Source: Escherichia coli (GTDB lineage Bacteria; Pseudomonadota; Gammaproteobacteria; Enterobacterales; Enterobacteriaceae). From it: a stretch of 64,000 nucleotides of DNA. The notes beneath the pieces are model-generated. The model was not told where the DNA came from. It did not search any database and worked only from the letters and a program-made list of their open reading frames with translations. Of the stretch, positions 32,267-50,882 are shown one piece after another. How positions within the stretch are numbered: the stretch's first letter is position 1; each line of letters opens with the position of its first letter. The DNA is taken from the NCBI RefSeq assembly GCF_044647545.1, contig NZ_CP172818.1; one strand, 5' to 3'. The position numbers and the translations under genes are program-made.

Positions 32267-33649
32267 CTAAAGACTGGCTTTCCAGAGTTCAACACGGTTT
32301 CTACCTCGTCTTTTGGCGATATACAGAGCTTCATCGGCTATTTGAATGAGGCGCTCATAGTCAGGATGACCATTAAACATGGCGGCACCGATGGAAAGTG
32401 AGAGGGCAATATCCTCGCCGTTTGCGGCTTTCAGTTTGGTTTTCTCCACCCGACTGCGAATACGTTCTGCGGTACGTAACGTTTCGTTTTCCGAAGCTTC
32501 AGTCAAAACAATGATAAATTCATCGCCACCGTAGCGGAAAACATAATCACTACTGCGGACGTTGTCATAAAAGGCCTGAGAGACTTTACGCAGAATTTCA
32601 TCGCCAGTGTTATGGCCCCACGTATCGTTGATCTCTTTGAATTTATCAACGTCAATAATCAGCACTGACAGCGGTGTACCGGTCCGGTTGGCATGGGCAA
32701 TTTCGCGTTTGAAGATCGTCGGCAGGAAACGACGGTTAAGTAATTTCGTCAGGACATCCATACCGACTTCGTGGCGCGATACTTCTTCAAACAATTCACG
32801 CAGCAAGGTAATAATTTGCGATACGGTATTTCTTATCTGTAATAAAAATTTCACCCGTAAACTTCTGTTATTCAAATTCCTGGTGTTACGCATGGTTTGA
32901 TTGAAAATACCGTCGAAATCCTGAATCAGACGGGAGATATGGCCCACTTCGGCAATGCCGCTAAAATAATGTCGACCTTTATGGTTAAACCACAGGCCAA
33001 AATCAGCCTGGCTTAAAGGCAAACTACTGCCTAAATCAGAATCCAGCAGGACTTTATAGATAATATCTATTTCCCATGAAAGTATTGAGGCTATTTGCCG
33101 TTCTTTTTCTTCTTCGGCATTTTCCAGTAACGAGAAGATACGATAGTTTTCATCTTCCTTTGAGGCACTACTGTCACTAAAGGTAAACGCGCGGGTCATC
33201 ACTTCCATAGCGATATCAATACTGTTAATAGAGAAATGGTAGACCTGAAGTTTTTCTGCGGCGGAATAATCCGAAGAGAAGATGACCGGATAGAGGATTT
33301 TTTTCAGCACCCGAAACCCCATCTCGACAATTTCTACCGGAATTCCTATGCGGGCATGCACTTCCGCGACGGTATGCTGGATTTGTATTAGCCTTTCGAC
33401 ATCGTCAACCTGGGCAGAAAGCACGTTAATAATCCAGCGTTCCATCGCACTTTTCAACTGCCGCTCAACTTGTTCATTACTCAAGAATTCTTCGGCATGT
33501 GGGTCGATACGGACAATTCGATAAAACTCAATACTCAGATAATGAGCATGCGCAACGGCAATTTCCGCGGCTTTAGCACGAATGAGCGGATCTGCTTGTT
33601 CGACAAGCCCGGTCCACTCATCTTTCATTCTTTTAAAATACATCTCCAT
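32267..33649 (-). CDS. dosC: oxygen-sensing diguanylate cyclase (globin-coupled sensor, GGDEF)
   Basis: 460-aa ORF with a RYGGDEF motif; 24 nt upstream of dosP. Confidence 0.92.
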   Translation of the reverse strand: MEMYFKRMKDEWTGLVEQADPLIRAKAAEIAVAHAHYLSIEFYRIVRIDPHAEEFLSNEQVERQLKSAMERWIINVLSAQVDDVERLIQIQHTVAEVHARIGIPVEIVEMGFRVLKKILYPVIFSSDYSAAEKLQVYHFSINSIDIAMEVMTRAFTFSDSSASKEDENYRIFSLLENAEEEKERQIASILSWEIDIIYKVLLDSDLGSSLPLSQADFGLWFNHKGRHYFSGIAEVGHISRLIQDFDGIFNQTMRNTRNLNNRSLRVKFLLQIRNTVSQIITLLRELFEEVSRHEVGMDVLTKLLNRRFLPTIFKREIAHANRTGTPLSVLIIDVDKFKEINDTWGHNTGDEILRKVSQAFYDNVRSSDYVFRYGGDEFIIVLTEASENETLRTAERIRSRVEKTKLKAANGEDIALSLSIGAAMFNGHPDYERLIQIADEALYIAKRRGRNRVELWKASL

Positions 33650-34024
33650 AATTCACACCCTTATAAGGCTGGGAAAGCAGACGGAATCAAAACGAAACGC
33701 AACGTGCGAGATCGACTAACTGCACCATACTCTCCTGAAATATGAAGATATACTGAAAACAAATAAGCGACTTAGGACAGTTTCAATCTACGCTACTGTT
33801 CTTCAGAAGAGTATAGCCCATCGTAATTATTTTTCGGTGACAGCGAATATCGTATGTTTTTTCATGTTCATACATTTTTATTAGGGGATTTATGACTGTT
33901 TAACTAAGTGTGGTTAATTGCGTAGTTAATTTGACTTAAGTAAGCATGATTACTAGTGGGATATTTCAAGAGGGTAACAAGCCGGGGGGAAAGCACCGGC
34001 TTGTTACAAAGTAAGAATGGGAGT

Positions 34025-35344
34025 TTAACTGCCCCAACGACTTTGCAGATAGCTGACCGCTTGTTGAGTCTGTGGCTTATTCAGATAGTCCTCACGGAAC
34101 AAGATTGTGCCGCTAATTTCTGGCACGGCATCGTTAAGATCGAGCTGCTTTTTCAGTTCCGGTACGCCGCCGTTAATCATCCAGTCTGGCTCTATCTTTG
34201 AAGGTTCACCCACTTTATAGAAGGCGATACCGATATACAGGCGGGTCCTGGTCGGTTTAACGACATCCGCCCACCATTTTGCCAACACGTCATAACGTGC
34301 GGCACTCCGTGAGAACGGCCAGTAAATTTGGGGAGCAATGTAATCCAGCAACCCTTGTTCCACCCATCGACGGGTATCAGCGTAGGATTCGTCATAGGCT
34401 GCCGCGCCTCGGGTATCGGAACCGAGCGGATCGTGTGATCGGTTACGCCACACGCCTGCCGGGCTAACGCCAAATTCGACTTCCGGCTTAATGCTTTTAA
34501 TGGTGTGCGATACCTTCGCAATTAACTGCTGAGTATTGTTGCGCCGCCAGTCTGCTTTTGACGCAAATGCGCCGCCGTATTTGCGGTACGTTTCGTTATC
34601 ATTTAGCCGTGAAGCTGGTGACTCAGTATAGAAATAGTCGTCAAACTGCACGCCATCTACCGGATAGCGGGAAACCACTTCTGCGACTATTGATGTGATC
34701 CAGTCCTGAACCTCAGGGATGCCCGGGTCGAGGACAAAGCGATCGCCGGACGTTCTGATCCAGTCGCGGTGTTGCACATAGACGCTGGCCGGTTGTTGAG
34801 ACAGGGTGCTATTCAGTTCCCTGATAGTACCGGGCTTCGTATTAACCGATACGCGATAGGGGTTAAACCATGCGTGTACTTTCATCCCACGCTTGTGGGC
34901 TTCGTCGAGCATGAATTGCAGCGGATCGTAACCCGGATTTTCACCAATCTTACCGGTCATAAGATCGGACCACGGCAAAATTTTCGATGGCCACAGGGCG
35001 GTACCATCCGGCTTGACCTGAAAAAAGACCGTGTTTATGCCGAGACGTTGCAGATGATCCAGTTTGTCGATCATCGCCTGTTGTTGTACACGGGCCCGGC
35101 TGGTGGGGTTACTAATGTTAACCGAGGAAAGCGGTGGCCAGTCGAGGCGAGACACCGTGGCCAGCCAGATGCCACGCATCGGTTGTGACGATTGTTGCGT
35201 CGTGGCTGGTGGCTTTGAACCCGCTGGTGGTGTCACCATGGACTCTGGAGGCGTGCTTTTACAACTACACAGTAAAAGTGCCAGTGCAACCAGTATCGCT
35301 GGTCTTCTAATCGCTAATTTCTCGTTTCGGGAGCAGATATCCAT
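34025..35344 (-). CDS. yddW: glycoside-hydrolase-like lipoprotein YddW
   Basis: 439-aa ORF with a lipoprotein signal (LALLLCSC), K-12 synteny. Confidence 0.85.
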   Translation of the reverse strand: MDICSRNEKLAIRRPAILVALALLLCSCKSTPPESMVTPPAGSKPPATTQQSSQPMRGIWLATVSRLDWPPLSSVNISNPTSRARVQQQAMIDKLDHLQRLGINTVFFQVKPDGTALWPSKILPWSDLMTGKIGENPGYDPLQFMLDEAHKRGMKVHAWFNPYRVSVNTKPGTIRELNSTLSQQPASVYVQHRDWIRTSGDRFVLDPGIPEVQDWITSIVAEVVSRYPVDGVQFDDYFYTESPASRLNDNETYRKYGGAFASKADWRRNNTQQLIAKVSHTIKSIKPEVEFGVSPAGVWRNRSHDPLGSDTRGAAAYDESYADTRRWVEQGLLDYIAPQIYWPFSRSAARYDVLAKWWADVVKPTRTRLYIGIAFYKVGEPSKIEPDWMINGGVPELKKQLDLNDAVPEISGTILFREDYLNKPQTQQAVSYLQSRWGS

Positions 35345-35420
35345 ATGTGCTGGTTTCCGGTAAACAGATGTGCGCTCATTCTCGTACTTATCCCGGTTAA
35401 GTCAATACGACAGCAAGCAC

Positions 35421-35450
35421 GAAAAAGGGAGCGATGAATTATCGCTCCCT
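35421..35450 (-). terminator. rho-independent terminator of gadBC
   Basis: Minus-strand RNA forms agggagcgat-aattc-atcgctccct followed by ttttc, directly 3' of gadC. Confidence 0.7.
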
Positions 35451-35474
35451 TATCTTATAACCATTCAGACATGG

Positions 35475-37010
35475 TTAGTGTTTCTTGTCATTCATCACAA
35501 TATAGTGTGGTGAACGTGCACGCGGGTGCAGGAAGAAGTGACCTTTTGGTGCGTTCTGACTGTTGATTGGCTCCAGAGTAACGCCGGTATTCCCTTTGCC
35601 TTTACGATCATGAACAGCATAGAGAATAAAGGGCAGGGCAAGTACCACCAGGAAACTCACGACCAGTAATTCAACATACATATCAGTAGAGTCACCCTGG
35701 ATGTTATCCGGCGGCAGGAAGGAAACAATAAACGCCATAATTGAAGTCAGCAGACCGACAATAGCCACGACCAGTTTCACCCCTTTACCACCAGGGATAT
35801 TAAATGTGCGTTTTAAGTCAGGATGTTTAAGAACCAACACAATGTAGCCAATAAACAGCATGAAATAAGCACACAGATAAATCACCACCGTCAGCGCCAG
35901 TGCGATCAGGAAGGACATGTTGTTACCGCCACCGGTATTGGTGAGGATGATCAACGCGATAGAAGTAATCACCAACTGCGAAATGACCAGCGTTACCGGT
36001 ACGCCATTTTTGTTCATTTTAGCGAATGCCGCTGGCAGCAGGTTTTTCTGCGCTGTGACATACATCCCGCGAGAAGGACCAACAATCCAGGAAGCGATTT
36101 CCGCCAGAACACCCAGCAACAGCAGTGCGGAGATCACGCGAACCGTCCACTCAATTTCCGGTGCCACATGTGACATCAGAACGGTAAAGGTTTGCATTAC
36201 CCCTGCGGAGAGGTTGATTTCATTACCCGGAATGACCATCGCAATAGACAAACCGCCAACAGAGCTTAAGCAGATTGCCGCCACCATCAGCAGTAACATA
36301 GCCAGTGGATAGTCGCGCCCGGGGTTGCTCATTTCATTGACGTGGGTTGCGGAAGCTTCAACGCCCATATAACTCAAAATGAAGGCAACAAATACAACCA
36401 GAGTGCCCACTTTAGAGAAGTCAGGGAAGAAGGTCTTCGCATCCATTTCGATAGCAACGGGGGCACCGGAGTGCAGATAAATAGCCGCTAATGCGATCAA
36501 AATAAATGCAGGTAACAGGATACCGGCGAAGAAGCCAACTTTAGCAATTCGCGCCGTGTATTTCGTGCCACCAAACTGCGTTAATGCCAGCGCCCAAAGA
36601 ATGATGAGTGCTGCAATAGTTTTGGTAATGGGGTCTTCATTCAGCGCTGGCCATTTCAGGATGTAGGAGAGTGCCCCTAACACGAAATAGAGCATCGGAA
36701 TAAAACCAATGGCGATTTGCAGATAGCCAAATGAGATCGCTGCAAATCCCCATCTCGGCCCCAGAGTATTTGATACCCAGGCGAAGACGCCACCTTCTTC
36801 CCAGCCGTCGACGGTAGCCATTTCCGCAGCACAAAGTCCCACGGGAATAAACCATAAAATCCCGCCTAATAGCAGGAAGAAGACTAATGAAAAGCCCGAT
36901 GTTGCGAAGGTAGGGTATTCATAAACAGCCATTACCATCGATGCCGTTATGGCAAAGAATCCGAGTAATGTGAGCTGCTTAGCTTTACCTGTCTGTACTG
37001 ATGTAGCCAT
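35475..37010 (-). CDS. gadC: glutamate:GABA antiporter
   Basis: 511-aa APC-family transporter ORF. Confidence 0.95.
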
Positions 37011-37165
37011 ATTATCCCCCTAAAACGGTATTCCTGTCGGAACCGCACCTGTTTTGTTCTGAAGCGTATTCAGAACAATATTTTCCGTTGCTAATGCCAG
37101 TGAACAGACTTTGGAAATTGTCCCGAAACGGGTGTGTTTCGGGACACCGTTACCGTTAAACGTTA

Positions 37166-38566
37166 TCAGGTATGTTTAAAGCTGTTCTGCTGGGCAATAC
37201 CCTGCAGTTTCGGGTGATCGCTGAGATATTTCAGGGAGGCTTTGTAGTCTTCCAGCAACAGTTCAGCAAAGTCCATTTCGAAGCCGCGACGACACATAAT
37301 GCGCATCACCACGATGTCAGTGGCTTCACCGCCGAGAGTGAAGGCCGGAACCTGCCAGCCGCGCAGACGCAGACGTTCAGAGAGGTCGTAGAGGGTGTAT
37401 CCCGGATCTTCACCATCTTTCAGTTTGAAGCAAACCGCTGGGATGCCTTCGTCCGGGCGACCGGTACAGATGAACTCATACGGCCCCAGTTTGGCGATTT
37501 CATCCGCCAGATAGGCAGCAACCTGGTAGGAAGCGTTCTGTACTTTGGTATAGCCTTCACGACCGAGGCGCAGGAATTCATAGTACTGTGCAATCACCTG
37601 ACCCGCCGGGCGGGAGAAGTTGATGGCGAAAGTCCCAATCTGACCACCGAGATAGTCAACGTTGAACACCAGTTCCTGCGGCAGCGCTTCTTCATCACGC
37701 CAGATAACCCAGCCGCAGCCTAGCGGAGCCAGACCGAATTTATGGCCTGAAGCACTGATCGATTTCACACGCGGCAGGCGGAAGTCCCAGACGATATCCG
37801 GGGCGACGAACGGTGCCAGGAAGCCACCGCTGGCGGCGTCGATGTGCATGTCGATGTCGATACCGGTGTCGGCCTGGAATTTATCCAGCGCATCGTGCAG
37901 CGGCTGCGGGAACTCATAGTTACCGGTATAGGTCACGCCGAAAGTCGGCACCACGCCGATGGTATTTTCGTCGCAGGCTTCAATCATGCGTTTCGGGTCC
38001 ATAAACAACTGACCGGGGCGCATAGGGATCTCACGCAACTCCACATCCCAGTAGCGGGCGAATTTATGCCAGCAGATTTGTACCGGACCGCACACCAGGT
38101 TTGGTTTATCCGTTGGCTTACCTGCAGCTTCCATACGCTTGCGCCAACGCCATTTCATCGCCATCCCGCCAAGCATACAGGCCTCGGAAGAACCAATGGT
38201 GTTGGTGCCAACGGCCTGACCATTTTTCGGTGCAGGCGCATGCCACAGATCGGCAACCATGTTTACGCAACGCAGGTCGATGGCTGCAGATTGCGGATAT
38301 TCTTCTTTGTCGATCCAGTTTTTGTTAATGGATAAATCCATCAACTTGTGGACATTTTCGTCGTCCCAGGTCTGGCAGAAAGTGGCCAGGTTCTGACGAG
38401 CGTTGCCATCAAGATATAATTCGTCATTGATAATCTGAAATGCGACATCGTCGCGCATTTCGTGCAGCGGAAAACGTTTTGATTCTGCGATAGTGGAAAT
38501 AGACTTTGCACCAAAACGTGAATCGAGTAGTTCCGACCTTAAATCCGTTACTTGCTTCTTATCCAT
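37166..38566 (-). CDS. gadB: glutamate decarboxylase B (PLP-dependent)
   Basis: Trimmed to [21 protein letters not shown] (ATG at 38566-38564), 466 aa. Confidence 0.95.
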
Positions 38567-38645
38567 TTTAAACTCCTTAAAATGATTGGATCGCATTAAA
38601 AAAGTAGGATTTATCGATAAAGTAAGCAAGTGCAAAGGACTCGTG

Positions 38646-38665
38646 TTTAAATAACAAAATCCTAA
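38646..38665 (-). promoter_or_regulatory. GAD box (GadE/GadX-RcsB binding site) upstream of gadB
   Basis: Plus-strand tttaaataacaaaatcctaa is the reverse complement of TTAGGATTTTGTTATTTAAA, an exact 20/20 match to the GAD box as I recall it, about 80-100 nt upstream of the gadB ATG. Confidence 0.8.
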
Positions 38666-38995
38666 TGTTATTTATCGTGAGATATTGCGTGAATAATATT
38701 TTTTCATTGAAAAACAATATAGTAGGGAGCTATTGGGTGGTGGCAAGGTGTTTTATGCTGTTATTTTTATGTGCATTCTGTGCCTCCTGAATTATCACGT
38801 AAAAATCAGACCTTAAAATATCATTATTAGTACGCGGTTATTTACTTTGAACGCATTTATAAAATTATTACATAAAAATAGCGAATATTGCTAAAATCCC
38901 CGCCAACGATGTGTTGACGGGGCTGTGATTATTTTGGCAATAATACCCCGGCATAAGTATTTACCGGATGAGAAAGATATTGTTTAACGCGTTAA

Positions 38996-39379
<384 letters not shown>

Positions 39380-41203
39380 AAACCGAGTAATAATGGGATA
39401 TAAGGTAATGGTGAAAAAAGGATAAACGAAAAATAAGAAAGTCTATGTATGAATACGCGCTGGAACCCATGCGGTGGCCTGCCTGCAATTTGCTAAATGT
39501 TGGCTTCAGTTAACTTTATCGTTGAGTAGATAATGTAATTGTCTTGGATAGAAAAATGTGATGTAAATGTCTATATTAAAAAGATTTTAGGATGAAAATA
39601 AACTTGATGATTAAAAAAGGCTAAAAGTAAACTAGAATGAAAATTACCAATGTAACATATAAAAATGGTGAATAAACTGATAAGGTGGGAGGAAGAAAAA
39701 TAATGATAGGAATGTGCTATTCATAAATAATATCGGGTCGGTGAGAATTGATAAATTATATGTATCCGATAGATAAAAAATGATAAACTAAGAGGGTAAT
39801 GGAATTAGTATAATGAGGTAAGTAAAATAATTGATATGATCAGAGTGATGGCTGCTATCATGAAAAGTAGTTACTGAATTATGGTCTGTAAGGTATGTAG
39901 CTCTGGGGGCATAAATTAAATAAAAGAAACTATGTTCTGAGAAAAGAAATTATTATTAATAAAATGCATTGTGTAATGATAAAAATAGTTTTTGGCCTGC
40001 ATAGCGTTGTTGATAGTGAATAATTTAGGAAAAAATAGGCCAGCAGAGTGGGTTCCCTGGTCGCGCTGTCTTTGTTTGATGAACTCTTTCAGAGTGCTGT
40101 CATCATCATTTTTCATGAGTAAACTGCGACTCTTTTCAAGGTAAAAACAGTAATCAATTTGAGATTAATTGAAAACTGGAGGGCTGGCTCCTGCATTCTG
40201 CTCCTGCCGGGCTTTTTGATTTGTTAATTTTGATTTATTGTAGGGTGGCTGGCTGCTGTGATAAACTCTTTAAGCTTGCATCTTTTAACGACCTGCGGAT
40301 TGGGGGGCAAGGTTATTTTTGCTTAGATCGTGTTGTAGATAACTGATGTTTTCTACTGTATAGAAAGGAATAATCGTTTTACGTATAGAATTGGCTTAAG
40401 TCTGTGTTGGGGTTATGCGGGTAATTTGACTGATGGGAAAAATTTGGGTAATTTCAGAATGGAATATTTCTGTAAACAGTGAGAATAAGAGGTTATCAGG
40501 TAGATTTTTATGTGGCTGCTTTTTTATCTGCAACAGGGCAGCAAGGAAACGCCATCAGCTTAAGGTCTTTGGAATGCTGATATGGCTGATAAGAGCTGTA
40601 GGTAAAATCATTGGGAAATAGCTGTATAATTACGGGTGAAGTCACAATAAAATTGGGGTGTGAGTGCGGATAGGTCTGACTTTAAGCCTGCCGAGCGGCA
40701 AGGACATCGATAACGCACATTATGGAGGTAAAGAGAATAATTGTATGATACTGTCCGTCAGTTGTCGAGAATGCGTAACCTGATAAGAATAGGAAGCGTA
40801 GTAGTTACTTACTCAGATAATGCTTTGATTGATCAGGTGAGGATTATTTGGCAGGTCGGAGCTTTAAGCAGGTAGCTTGGCTGGTGTGTGGCGATAGTGT
40901 TGGTGTGCGTGGGGTTGAAGTTGGGTGCCTTGGGGTGTGTTGGTGGGGGTGTCTTGGAAGTAAGAGAGAAAAAGTGGGTGAGTGAAGTAGTAAAAGAGAA
41001 GAGAAGAAGGGAAAAAGTAAAGGTTAAGTAATTGAAAAAATGAATAAAATGAGAAAATGGAATTGAGATAAAATAATATGAAAGGTTATGAAATGATAAA
41101 TATGTGATGAATGTATTATTTATTAATAAATATATCGCCTAAAAACAACGCGGGGCAGGGAATGACTGCATTTAATTTTTAGTAGGGTGCGTGGTGACTC
41201 TCG
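39380..41203. other. ORF-free block with strong strand asymmetry (C-depleted, A/G/T-rich on the plus strand); nature unknown
   Basis: No ORF of 70 aa or more on either strand in about 1.8 kb; positions 40981-41100 contain no C at all. Confidence 0.9.
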
Positions 41204-41974
41204 TTAGCAAATAATCAATCCTAAAGCACTCATCGTGTTGTCCGTGTTCATACCGGTGTGCCTTTGACAACGGTACTCCTTAGAAACTCTCTTTGGACTG
41301 TTGCCGAAATGTTTGCGGAACGCATAAATAAAATAAGATGTACTCGCATAACCACATTGTTCGGCAATTTTATTGACTGAACCTTCTACGCGTATCAAAT
41401 TTTTTGCGTGCTGCATTCTGGCATCTAAAAGAATCTGTGAGAATGTCGTTTGCTCTTGCTTTAGTTTTTTCTTCAACAGGCTTTCACTGATGTACAGGCA
41501 GTCACAAATATCTTTCAGCTTCCATGGGTGCGCCAGCTTCATGTTGACAATATTTCTCACTTTCCCGGAAACGGATAGCACACCGTTAGTTAATAGTGTA
41601 ATGAAACCTTTGCATGCGGCAAAAATAGACAGGCAAGAAAAAAGCAAAAGTTCTGAAAAATTATGATGATTGCGTTCTTCCGAGTTGAGATAAGCAATCA
41701 TTTCATTAAGCAATCCAGTCGGTACATTTGAAGCACGTAAAAACTTCGCAGGAACAGGCACCGTCACTGTCTGAATGTTAGTGCATTGTAGATATTTTTT
41801 AATGGTATTTTCATTAAATCCGATTTCTTTGAAATGCCGCTCATAAGGTTCAAAATGCGTACGAACAGCGTTATCTACCATCAGGATCTCGCCGTCAGAG
41901 AAGGCGTAATCTTTATCTAAAATGTTAGCGTTGAAGGCATGATGAATAAATATAACAGAACAAACGAGCGACAT
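41204..41974 (-). CDS. ydeO: AraC-family acid-resistance regulator
   Basis: 256-aa ORF with a C-terminal AraC-type HTH; immediately downstream of safA. Confidence 0.9.
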   Translation of the reverse strand: MSLVCSVIFIHHAFNANILDKDYAFSDGEILMVDNAVRTHFEPYERHFKEIGFNENTIKKYLQCTNIQTVTVPVPAKFLRASNVPTGLLNEMIAYLNSEERNHHNFSELLLFSCLSIFAACKGFITLLTNGVLSVSGKVRNIVNMKLAHPWKLKDICDCLYISESLLKKKLKQEQTTFSQILLDARMQHAKNLIRVEGSVNKIAEQCGYASTSYFIYAFRKHFGNSPKRVSKEYRCQRHTGMNTDNTMSALGLIIC

Positions 41975-42048
41975 TTTATCTCCTTAAAACAATAAAGTTT
42001 TTATCGATACTTTTTTAACATTTCATATTTATAATTTGCTGTTTATTT

Positions 42049-42246
42049 TCAGTCTTGCAAACTATTGATAATGAAATGTGTAAGATCTCTTGCAATGCGA
42101 CCCATTTCTGAAATACCCAGCTGATCAATTGCCGAAAAAATGGCTATCAACGTAAGTGTCAGTAATAAGACAACCACAATTACAGACATGATTTCTTTAT
42201 AGTTGTCTCTTTGCGTGATTTTGTTTTTCACTGTGGTCGCATGCAT
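42049..42246 (-). CDS. safA: small membrane protein, PhoQ-activating connector SafA
   Basis: 65-aa ORF with a single transmembrane helix. Confidence 0.88.
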   Translation of the reverse strand: MHATTVKNKITQRDNYKEIMSVIVVVLLLTLTLIAIFSAIDQLGISEMGRIARDLTHFIINSLQD

Positions 42247-42357
42247 TTCAAATATGTTTATTTAGCGGATAACGTTAAAAATCGTTAATCAGTATGCTTA
42301 ATATAACAGGCTGGAAAAAAGAGGAAATAGGACTGGTGCTTCAGTACTGAGCGGAGT

Positions 42358-42378
42358 TTCTTACAGCTGTAGGCAGAA
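42358..42378. promoter_or_regulatory. EvgA-box-like inverted repeat upstream of safA-ydeO
   Basis: ttcttacagctgtaggcagaa; near-identical to the motif at 45022-45041 upstream of ydeP. Confidence 0.6.
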
Positions 42379-42493
42379 GTTTATATCTTATAGTATGTAG
42401 TCTAATTTAATCCATGTGAGCAAATTGCGCGATAATAGTCAATGAGGAATTCTTCTGCTGTGCGGATGACAGCAGAAGAAATGAGAAGAGGCA

Positions 42494-44773
42494 TTAATTT
42501 GATGGTTCTAATTCAACCGGAATACTTTTATAGCCAGGAATGCCACTTAATGGATCGTGGTTATCAAGTGTTAGCATGTGATTCGATTCTGGAAAATAGG
42601 TCACCAGTGAGCGGTCAGCCATAGGGTAAATGACCACTTTTAATCTATCCATGCGTCGTGAGCTACGTTTACCGTCTGGCGTGAGTGCAATAAGATTAAC
42701 TCTTTCGCCGTTTTTTACACGGCAAATTTTAGCTTGTTTAGCACTCATAAAGACCACATCTCGTTGACCGAATACACCTCGATAGCGATCATCCATACCA
42801 TAAATCGTCGTGTTGTACTGATCGTGGCTGCGTACTGTCGCCATGACCAGTTTACTGTTAAACGCTGAAGAGGGATCTTCTAACAGCCCTTTGCTGGTAA
42901 TGAAATTAGCCTTACCTGACGGCGTCATCCAGCGCCTTTCAGCAGCTGCGTTTATCAGGTGAAAACCACCAGGATGACGGATGCGCTGGTTATAGTCGGC
43001 AAACTCTGGCAGCACAGCTTCAATGTCATTGCGAATGCGATCATAATCTTCCACCAGATACTCCCAGGCTACCACGCTCTGGGGTAGTGCTGCCTGCGCG
43101 ATTCCCGCGACCACTGCACACTCTGATTTCAGCATTACACCGGCGGGTTTTAACACACCACGCGAGGCATGAATCATCGACATTGAATCTTCAACGGTTA
43201 CCGCCTGCGCACCGCTTTTTTGCATGTCAATCTCGCTACGTCCCAGAACCGGCAGAATATAGCTATGCCGTGCGGTCAGCAGATGAGAGCGGTTAAGCTT
43301 AGTGGCTACGTGTACAGCCAAATCTAATTGCGTTAACGGTACAGCGCTCGCTTCCCGATCTGGCATTGCCAGCGCAAAGTTGCCCCCCATGCAGATCAAT
43401 GCTCGAGCTTGCCCCGTACATATTGCTTGCATGCTGGCAATTGCAGCATGTCCAGGTGCATGAGGTGGGGTGAAACCATAGCGCTCACCCAGGCGAGCCA
43501 GAAACTCTGCAGACGGTTTCTCGGTGATACCGACGGTTCGGTCGCCCTGTACATTAGAGTGACCTCGTAGTGGGCAGATGCCCGCACCAGGCTTGCCAAT
43601 GTTACCTTTCATCAACAGCAGATTGACCAGTTGCTGTACATTCTGGGTACCATGTTCGTGCTGAGTGATCCCCATTCCGTAACAGATAATGGTGCGGTCG
43701 GCAGCGGCATATGCATCAGCCAGTTCGGCGATTTGAGTCTGACTTAGTCCAGAAATACGCTCGATATCTTTCCACTCGGAATTGAGAACGTCACGGCGTA
43801 GCTCGTCAAAGCCGACGGTATGCGTTTGAATAAATTCGTCATCCAGCAATGAGGGCCGACCTGCGGCGCTTGCAGCATCATCGCGCTCAATTAACAGGCG
43901 CATCATCCCCTTGAGCAACGCCATATCACCACCAATGCGCACGTTGTAGTAGGCACTGGCCAACTGAGTCTCAGAGTTCGTCAGCATTTCAAACGGGTTT
44001 TGCGGTGCGGTAAATCGCTCCAGGCCACGTTCCTGTAGAGGATTGATGGCGATCATTTTCGCTCCCCGTTTCACTAAAGCGCGCAACGAACTCAGCATGC
44101 GAGGGTGGTTTGTACCAGGGTTATGCCCAATGCAAATGACTAAATCGCATTTCTCAAAGTCTTCCAGCAACACGGTCCCTTTACCTACACCGATACTCGC
44201 TGCCAAACCCACACTGGTCGGTTCATGGCACATGTTGGAGCAGTCGGGGAAGTTATTGCTCCCGTATTCACGGGCAAAAAGCTGATAAAGAAAGGCAGCT
44301 TCATTGGAAGTGCGGCCCGAAGTATAGAATTCAACCTGATTGGGATCACTATAGCTTTGAAGGCGTTCGCCAATTTCGTCGAAAGCTTGTTGCCAGCTTA
44401 ATGGCTTGTAACAGTCGCTGACGGCATCATATTTCAAAGGCTGGGTGAGACGCCCCGCAGCCTCAAGCTCGTGGTCTCCCCAGGTAAGTAATGATTGAAC
44501 CGTATTCTCAGCAAAGAAAGAGGCGTTTACCTGCTTATCCGTGACTTCCCAGGCGATTGCTTTTGCGCCGTTTTCACAAATGTCGAATGACGCACTGTGC
44601 TTAGGATCTGGCCATGCACAACCCGGACAGTCAAAGCCCTCTGGCTTATTCATGTCAAACATGGCAATAACATCCTGGCGTATATCCATCTGCTTACGTA
44701 CTGCATTCGCTACGGATTTAACAGCACCCCAACCACCGGCAGCCCCCTGGTAGGATTCAATTTTTTTCTTCAT
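42494..44773 (-). CDS. ydeP: molybdopterin oxidoreductase-family acid-resistance protein
   Basis: 759-aa ORF, formate-dehydrogenase-like. Confidence 0.92.
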
Positions 44774-45021
44774 CTACTTATCCTGTGTGGAAATGAATTA
44801 TTAGGATTTGAAATAGCGATGATGCACAGTATATACAAAGGGATTATCGTCAATATGGATATATAAGAGTAGGGGACTACTCTCTTTCTATTTTTAATCT
44901 ATTATCGTTAAATAATAGAATGGTATAAATACGATAAGTTAAGCATCATCTCTCATAGTGTTTAAATTAACATGTTTTTCAATATAAAAAATAAGACTCT
45001 GGCGTTAATTGTGCGCGGATT

Positions 45022-49159: not shown

Positions 49160-50482
49160 TTACTTAATACCGTATTCTCGGCTTAACCGGTCGTGCAACC
49201 TCAACACATTGGTTTCAACTGCCGTCACCACGTTCTCCGGAAAATCTGTCGGTAATGAAGTCTTCACGTTATCCAGTGCTGCTGGAATCATTCTGGCAAA
49301 GTCACTCAGGATTTCATGCATCTGCACTTCCGGGAATCTCAGCACCTTTGCTGTCGCCAAAAAATGTCGCGGATAAATTTTATCGATTGCCGTTTTTTTG
49401 CCTTTGGATGCGTTAAGCCCCATTGCCAGTTTGAGATCGCTGATGTGTATTCCCGTACCGCCAAGGACCGGAAATGCTGAAATGATGTCGTAAAATGGCG
49501 TGAGTCGATAACTGCCGCCAGCCTGAATAAATACGGAGAAGTTTTTTGCATGACCGTCCGTTGCGCCAATCAACCACTGGAAGACCTGGAATTTCATAAA
49601 ATCATAGCGATCTTTCAGCGCCTCGCTGGACCCCATCAAAAAAGCCATGATCCGCGCGATGCCTGGGCCTCCATCTGATTCATATTTCACCGATGAAGGT
49701 AAACCGAATGTCTGACACATATCCTCCTGTGGCAAGCGAAGTAAAACCGTTCGCTCAGCATTCCAACGCCTGTCAAAACGTTCGACCGCTAACGCGCGCA
49801 CATTTCCCGCTTTAATGATTTCTGCGTCCGGAACATTCAACCCAAGTTCTTTCGCCAGCAGCAGACAGTAATACTCATTATCAACGCTTTGGCTGAGATC
49901 GAGCGTCGCATTGGGCTGCCTGATTTCGCCAATCGGTAATTTAATGATGTGCGTCGTCGGCGTTATTCCTTTCGGAATGCACCAGTCATTGCCTATTCTG
50001 AGCAGTGCTGTCTTCTCCTGTGCGCCAGCAACCGAGATGCGAAAGTCATTTTCTTCTCTAATCATGCCTAGCGGGATATCTGCTTTATAAGCCGTTAATA
50101 CTTCTTCAAGTCTGGCTTCAGTAAGCTTTTCCCATGCCATTATCGGATGCGTTACGGTTTCGTCTTCGGGTATTAACGTCACGGCACCAACGCTGTCTCG
50201 CCCTATTTCTGACAATAAATCAAACGGTTGTCTGGATTTGGCATGATAACGTTTAACGATCCGGTCACGTACAATCGGGCTATCGGGTAACAGGTTATCG
50301 AAGAAGTTAAATACGGCATCAGAGGTGATATTCCCCCTCTGCAATGGCAGCGAAAGTGACAACGGTCTGGCATAACGGCTTGCTAACCACTCCGGTGCAT
50401 ACTTAAAGGTGTGCGCGCCGTTGGCTAACTTCGTTAACTCGCCTACCCGCTGGTTGTTCATCCAAGTGACAAGTTTAGGCAT
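49160..50482 (-). CDS. hipA: HipA serine/threonine kinase toxin
   Basis: Trimmed to MPKLVTWMNNQRVGEL (ATG at 50482-50480), 440 aa; overlaps the hipB stop by 1 nt. Confidence 0.95.
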   Translation of the reverse strand: MPKLVTWMNNQRVGELTKLANGAHTFKYAPEWLASRYARPLSLSLPLQRGNITSDAVFNFFDNLLPDSPIVRDRIVKRYHAKSRQPFDLLSEIGRDSVGAVTLIPEDETVTHPIMAWEKLTEARLEEVLTAYKADIPLGMIREENDFRISVAGAQEKTALLRIGNDWCIPKGITPTTHIIKLPIGEIRQPNATLDLSQSVDNEYYCLLLAKELGLNVPDAEIIKAGNVRALAVERFDRRWNAERTVLLRLPQEDMCQTFGLPSSVKYESDGGPGIARIMAFLMGSSEALKDRYDFMKFQVFQWLIGATDGHAKNFSVFIQAGGSYRLTPFYDIISAFPVLGGTGIHISDLKLAMGLNASKGKKTAIDKIYPRHFLATAKVLRFPEVQMHEILSDFARMIPAALDNVKTSLPTDFPENVVTAVETNVLRLHDRLSREYGIK

Positions 50483-50748
50483 TACCACTCCAGATTTTGC
50501 TGTTCTGTTGATTCTGGCGAGGCATTTTTCGCGTCGCATAGCGTCATTGAGAGTTCAAGCGACTGTAAAATCTTAAAAAATGTCGTGAGCGTGGTATTGT
50601 CAGGGTTGTTTTCGAAATTGGAAATCGTCGCCTGCTTAATACCAATTTTTTTCGCCAGCTCGCTCTGCGTCCAGCCATTTTGCTGGCGAACCAGTTTCAT
50701 TGCATTCGCCAATTGCGTTGGGCTATAGATCTTCTGAAAGCTCATCAT
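50482..50748 (-). CDS. hipB: HipB antitoxin (Cro/C1-type HTH)
   Basis: Trimmed to MMSFQKIYSPTQLANAMKLVRQQNGWTQSELAKKIG, 88 aa. Confidence 0.95.
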   Translation of the reverse strand: MMSFQKIYSPTQLANAMKLVRQQNGWTQSELAKKIGIKQATISNFENNPDNTTLTTFFKILQSLELSMTLCDAKNASPESTEQQNLEW

Positions 50749-50769
50749 GTCATACGTCCACAGCAAGTT

Positions 50770-50882
50770 TATCCGCTTAAGGGGATATTATAAGTTTTAT
50801 CCTTTAGTGAGGATAAGTCAATCTGGAAACACATCTTATCCGCTCTACGGGATAAACGCTGCGATATCCGCGATCGCGGATA
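50770..50882. promoter_or_regulatory. four HipB operators (TATCC-N8-GGATA) in the hipBA promoter
   Basis: Exact TATCC-N8-GGATA matches at 50770-50787, 50798-50815, 50837-50854 and 50865-50882. Confidence 0.9.

Follow-up and report, generated by a model that had tools for sequence, protein, structure and literature searches.

The window (the whole 64-kb stretch of DNA that was analyzed) carries the gadBC operon on its minus strand. The open reading frame at 37166–38566 encodes glutamate decarboxylase B (466 residues) and is 100% identical in nucleotide sequence to gadB of NZ_CP008697.1. It is followed on the same strand by gadC at 35475–37010, which encodes the glutamate:GABA antiporter and is co-transcribed with gadB; this gene was identified from its open reading frame and from an annotation that matches at 100% identity. 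The digH gene, assigned from its open reading frame and the annotated region of NZ_CP008697.1, lies at 34025–35344, also on the minus strand. The arrangement is that of a gadBC operon, with a decarboxylase gene and then gadC, flanked by digH and by the 3′ end of pqqL. The decarboxylase gene was assigned as gadB and not gadA because gadC comes next and because the order digH–gadC–gadB matches ST648. Positions 33001–38989 are 100% identical to the annotated digH–gadC–gadB region of the ST648 genome NZ_CP008697.1, the window is identical to this genome again past ∼41250, and the remainder is 99.9–100% identical to it save for a few insertions and deletions. By this comparison, the window is an ordinary ST648-type E. 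coli chromosome. The hipBA toxin–antitoxin genes at ∼49220–50828 are lacking in NZ_CP008697.1, which is ordinary strain-level variation. The leucine-rich-repeat gene region at ∼12306–12613 is shorter than in the ST648 reference, and the IS2 insertion found in the fimbrial cluster of the reference is missing from the window at ∼48372. The gadE and rcsB genes lie outside the 64-kb window and are assumed to be present in the strain.

Characterization of the gadBC GAD box dates back to 2001, and nearly all E. coli genomes carry the box without change. The box was reportedly described in the gadBC promoter of E. coli K-12 by Castanie-Cornet and Foster in 2001 and by Ma et al. in 2003. In the window, the plus-strand letters at 38646–38665 read tttaaataacaaaatcctaa, and the minus strand of these positions carries TTAGGATTTTGTTATTTAAA, the activator site for GadE/RcsB. 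A pattern search for TTAGGATTTTGTTATTTAAA returned a single exact site in the 64-kb window, with 0 mismatches, at 38646–38665 on the minus strand. No further GAD box with up to 3 mismatches was found in the 64-kb window, for which shuffled sequences predict 0.01 sites. The initial annotation had described the reverse complement of these positions as an exact 20-bp GAD box and had proposed an alignment with the gadA and gadB promoters of MG1655 as the check. This description holds: the alignment gives 20/20 matches to each of the two MG1655 boxes with no mismatch, and the site is the same as the GadE site published as TTAGGAttTTgTTATTTAAa (PMC4918353). With no difference at any of the 20 positions, the window box retains the conserved G (mutation M1), a base critical for RcsB/GadE binding. 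A distance of 79 nt separates the box from the gadB ATG downstream (38566, minus strand), and one of 16 nt separates it from the −35 hexamer TTGCTT. Relative to the gadB transcription start, which was transferred from MG1655, the box spans approximately −72 to −53 with its center at about −62. The box is an already known element of gadBC, intact and in its normal position, and its identification is correct but ordinary.

The core promoter elements were located on the minus strand between the box and gadB. The −35 hexamer TTGCTT at 38624–38629 was read directly and is the same in MG1655; the 16-nt gap that separates it from the GAD box occupies 38645–38630. A 17-nt spacer leads from the −35 hexamer to the −10 hexamer TACTTT at 38601–38606, which is invariant in 11 Escherichia gad promoters. 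A putative RcsB (repressor) box, CGATAAATCC..., abuts the −10 hexamer at ∼38604–38616, where the limits are approximate and the borders deduced. The published RcsB box just upstream of the −10 hexamer is conserved in gadB save that its left end has C instead of G (PMC2887963), and exactly this G/C difference appears at that box's left end when the window is aligned with gadA. The gadBC transcription start is predicted at 38593–38594, 27–28 nt upstream of the ATG, by transfer from MG1655 on the basis of sequence identity. Primer gadB+77 (PMC3050690) maps to 38517, which places +1 at 38593, and the ChIP-exo distances (PMC4918353) place the start at 38594, 28 nt before the gadB ATG. The Shine–Dalgarno sequence AAGGAG was read directly at 38573–38578, 6 nt before the ATG, and is invariant across the 11 Escherichia gad promoters. 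In the alignment, the entire stretch from the box to the ATG is identical between the window and MG1655 gadB. The K-12 gadBC promoter has the same 20-bp box, 79 nt to the ATG, and 16-nt gap to TTGCTT, together with the same −10 hexamer, RcsB box, and Shine–Dalgarno sequence. The gadB −35 and −10 hexamers each match the consensus at only 3 of 6 positions. For this reason, a generic consensus promoter scan missed the real gadB promoter; the 3 sites that it listed are no more than shuffled sequences yield. The weak hexamers fit a promoter that depends on an activator.

Previously, the 20-bp GAD box was reported to be centered at −63, with 16 bp between it and the −35 hexamer downstream (PMC2887963, Castanie-Cornet et al. 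2010), and the position of the window box agrees with this layout. The gadA promoter in the acid fitness island carries the same 20-mer at the same spacing to the −35 hexamer, the −10 hexamer, and the ATG, and the RcsB/GadE heterodimer was directly shown to bind there, with a footprint from −50 to −76 (PMC2887963). A single G-to-C change in the gadA box abolishes both heterodimer binding and activation by GadE (PMC2887963). At gadB of MG1655, the box falls under a GadE ChIP-exo peak that spans 1570144–1570175 (NC_000913.2) at −62.5 relative to the start (PMC4918353, Seo et al. 2015), and it was placed at 1570149–1570168 by counting from the ATG. The mapping is considered checked because the gadA peak, taken from the same table with the same offset, covers the gadA box. 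Deletion of gadE in MG1655 at pH 5.5 lowers gadB 87-fold (log2 −6.44) and gadC 58-fold (log2 −5.85) (PMC4918353).

Binding of a GadE–RcsB heterodimer is thus supported by in vitro experiments at gadA and, for gadB, by sequence identity together with the MG1655 GadE ChIP-exo peak, so that binding and activation at the window box itself are drawn from the literature. An older model, in which GadE alone binds the box as a homodimer and RcsB has no direct role, is very unlikely to hold. A GadE ChIP-exo peak cannot tell whether RcsB is present or absent, and binding by GadE alone was described in earlier reports cited in PMC2887963; however, protection required RcsB, and contamination of the GadE preparations with RcsB explains the earlier results (PMC2887963). 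At gadA, moreover, GadE purified from an rcsB mutant shifts the promoter fragment only after addition of RcsB. TTAGGA, which forms the left half of the GAD box, resembles an RcsB half-site (PMC2887963); RcsB and RcsAB boxes are sites for response regulators of the LuxR/FixJ type. Unlike the canonical RcsB homodimer or RcsA/RcsB sites, the GAD box lacks symmetry and requires GadE as a partner.

With the GadE/RcsB heterodimer as the preferred activator, the 20-mer is very probably the gadBC promoter's GAD box in an ordinary ST648-like E. coli chromosome. The heterodimer would bind the box, whose center lies ∼62 nt before the transcription start and whose distance from the weak −35 hexamer TTGCTT is 16 nt. 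From this position, the bound proteins would recruit or stabilize RNA polymerase (with sigma-S or sigma-70) on a promoter whose hexamers are poor. The genes for glutamate decarboxylase (gadB) and the glutamate/GABA antiporter (gadC) would be switched on in this manner in stationary phase and at low pH. GadX/GadW sites further upstream (∼−184 to −288) would provide extra activation and counter silencing by H-NS.

The region that would hold these additional sites was mapped on the minus strand, upstream of the box. The equivalents of the MG1655 GadX ChIP-exo peaks at −184, −225, and −268 fall within 38758–38882 (PMC4918353 Supplementary Table 3, mapped via the ATG). The individual equivalents lie at 38758–38798, 38799–38839, and ∼38842–38882 (limits estimated), respectively, and that of the GadX peak at +66 lies at 38508–38548 (all from PMC4918353 ChIP-exo in MG1655). 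A candidate GadX/GadW-type motif, AGGTCTGATTTTTACGTGAT, at 38794–38813 (∼−220 to −201) has 1 mismatch to the motif AKGKCTGWTWTTWWYMYVAK, the source of which is PMC4918353. No second site of this kind occurs in the window. Taken by itself, the match is weak, as 33 of 100 shuffled sequences also contain one, and the motif gains support because it is located between GadX ChIP-exo peaks. GadX/GadW footprints at gadBC were reportedly described by Tramonti et al. in 2002 and 2006. Between approximately −85 and −330, the window has ∼15 differences and one 1-nt indel relative to MG1655 gadBC, all of which are common to ST648-type strains.

The pqqL intrinsic terminator was located by folding at 38893–38922 (minus strand; hairpin at 38922–38898), with a 10-bp GC-rich stem followed by AUUUU. 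It folds at −21.2 kcal/mol (z = −5.0), and none of 200 shuffled sequences folds equally well. The 3′ remnant of pqqL at 38929–38989 (minus strand) comprises the last 19 codons and the stop codon (codons at 38988–38929). Its translation, VKQYLSHPVNTYAGVLLPK followed by the stop, is identical to the C-terminus of ST648 pqqL. A terminator-like site at 38968–38947 was set aside; it lies within the coding remnant of pqqL, and the real pqqL terminator is the 38922–38898 hairpin. A scan of 37000–42500 with Rfam detected no RNA family at E ≤ 1.

An aberrant block at 38990 to ∼41219 occupies the adjoining stretch, outside the gadB control region. Its start is set at 38990 because identity to the reference genomes ends at 38989. 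The initial annotation had put the box about 330 nt from this block and had considered the gadB promoter core undisturbed; the measured distance is 325 nt (38665 to 38990), and the second statement is borne out by the box-to-ATG identity with MG1655 and by the region upstream of gadB. Positions 38567–38989 match E. coli genomes of the ST648 type at 100% identity, and the 424 nt upstream of gadB are 100% identical to at least 77 complete genomes; because of this identity, the promoter is regarded as undisturbed by the block. Every mapped gadBC cis-element lies below 38990, inside the intact region. The block leaves the gadB control region untouched, and, with all of these elements spared, nothing unusual about the regulation of acid resistance is to be concluded from the window.

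The block itself replaces 10.25 kb of the ST648 chromosome (pqqL, yddB, yddA, ydeM, and ydeN) with 2.2 kb; upstream of −397 it stands where MG1655 has pqqL. Identity to the reference stops abruptly at 38989/38990 and returns gradually from ∼41030 to 41220, and ST648 matches both flanks at 100% identity. Within 38990–39380 there are poly-G runs of 10, 48, 114, and 8 nt, and the GC skew in the block reaches +0.89. For the 169-nt C-rich piece at 39006–39174, no match at E ≤ 1 was found in 5426 complete E. coli genomes. An origin of this piece from degraded pqqL or other local sequence was rejected; the local alignment scores are no higher than those of shuffled sequences, and a semi-global alignment with the pqqL 3′ end is meaningless. 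The segment from 39380 to ∼40900 follows ydeM/ydeN colinearly, as a copy from which reference bases have been deleted unevenly, with losses of 58% for C, 25% for T, 16% for A, and 12% for G; for C, 237 of the 409 aligned-or-deleted reference positions are missing. G/A-rich noise follows at 40900–41030. A fold-back (palindrome) origin of the left junction, TTAACG|CGTTAA, was also rejected, as the complementarity ends after 6 nt and is taken as chance. The open reading frames at 39011–39403, 39126–39425, and 39153–39488 inside the block arise from homopolymer runs.

No complete E. coli genome that covers the block was found, and its absence from related genomes is accompanied by base-specific loss, long homopolymers, and perfectly matching flanks. 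Because of the last three features, the block is most likely a sequencing or assembly artifact or some other non-biological corruption. Natural deletions of the pqqL–yddB–yddA segment do exist, as in strain Z1323CEC0015. It is extremely improbable that the block is real DNA, which would require a strain that has lost pqqL–yddB–yddA and most of ydeM–ydeN and in which G-runs 48 and 114 nt long are present. If it were real, the G-runs could form G-quadruplexes adjoining the gadBC control region. The ydeO gene would then lie at most 2.6 kb from gadB, and H-NS spreading or the GadX-dependent control of gadBC might change. With the block read as an artifact, its errors taper into the last codons of ydeO (41204–41220) and remove the stop codon. 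The ydeO open reading frame reaches 256 residues for this reason, compared with the annotated 253, and the 3-codon extension is probably unreal. Neither this extension nor the gene content from pqqL to ydeN should be concluded from this assembly.

The conservation of the box was determined in two sets of genomes. In the first, the 80 nt around the box were found in 5402 of the 5426 complete E. coli genomes. An exact 30-mer with the gadA context occurs in 5284 (97%) of the complete genomes, and the exact gadB-context 30-mer occurs in 3668, so that about one-third are without the latter. In 3 of 6 sampled genomes, the gadB 30-mer differs only by a change of CA to AC or CA to CC just after the box. 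These variable bases correspond to 38644–38645 of the window, on the minus-strand 3′ side of the box, and the box itself is unchanged there. This change most likely accounts for the shortfall of the gadB 30-mer. Across the 6 sampled genomes, which were selected independently of the box, the box is invariant and its flanks are variable.

In the second set, a search of 100,044 species representatives gave 11 exact occurrences of the 20-mer. Escherichia accounts for eight of these (E. coli clusters, E. albertii, E. whittamii, and Escherichia sp. E1V33), and in all eight the flanks have diverged strongly and a gadA/gadB-type start codon follows 79–80 nt downstream. The invariance of the box in the Escherichia set is given by construction, because the loci were found via the exact box; the constant position and the diverged flanks are the informative features. 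The other 3 occurrences are in unrelated metagenome-assembled genomes (Lentisphaeria and Bacteroidales) with no gad gene nearby, and they agree with what chance would yield for an AT-rich 20-mer in 298 Gb.

These 3 exact matches, and the badly corrupted block 325 nt from the box, could be taken to mean that the 20-mer in the window is a chance AT-rich match, or part of an unreliable sequence hit by the nearby artifact, with no regulatory meaning. The probability of this reading is vanishingly small. The expectation of 0.01 sites per window and the canonical distances to the −35 hexamer and the ATG stand against a chance match, and the identity of the 424 nt upstream of gadB to other complete genomes and the abrupt left edge of the block stand against an unreliable sequence; on these comparisons, the reading is refuted.

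The box and much of both the core promoter and the coding sequence are common to gadA and gadB, and such paralogs tend to collapse in assemblies. The gadA flanks are unlike those of the window, with C instead of A before the box and TTAAGCC instead of CACGAGT after it; the gadA RcsB box begins with G and that of the window with C, and the upstream region and genomic context also differ. A paralogous gadA promoter, or a gadA/gadB chimera produced by misassembly or gene conversion, has practically no probability and is refuted by synteny and flanking sequence, since the flanks are gadB-type on both sides of the box, the order gadB, gadC, digH is that of the reference, and the 3′ end and terminator of pqqL lie upstream. 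The initial annotation was accurate in every respect, including the assignment of the box to gadB.

The GadE motif derived from ChIP-exo, TTARGAWWWWAAATA, was also searched. It does not recover the GAD box within 2 mismatches and is a poor detector of the GAD box for this reason. A sequence with 1 mismatch to this motif, TTAGGATTTGAAATA, appears at 44801–44815 on the plus strand; TTAGGATTT is common to this sequence and the GAD box's left half. The match could be a chance occurrence, as 3 sites with up to 2 mismatches are expected per window. The site is located 28–42 nt upstream of the ydeP ATG (44773, minus strand) and is inverted relative to ydeP.
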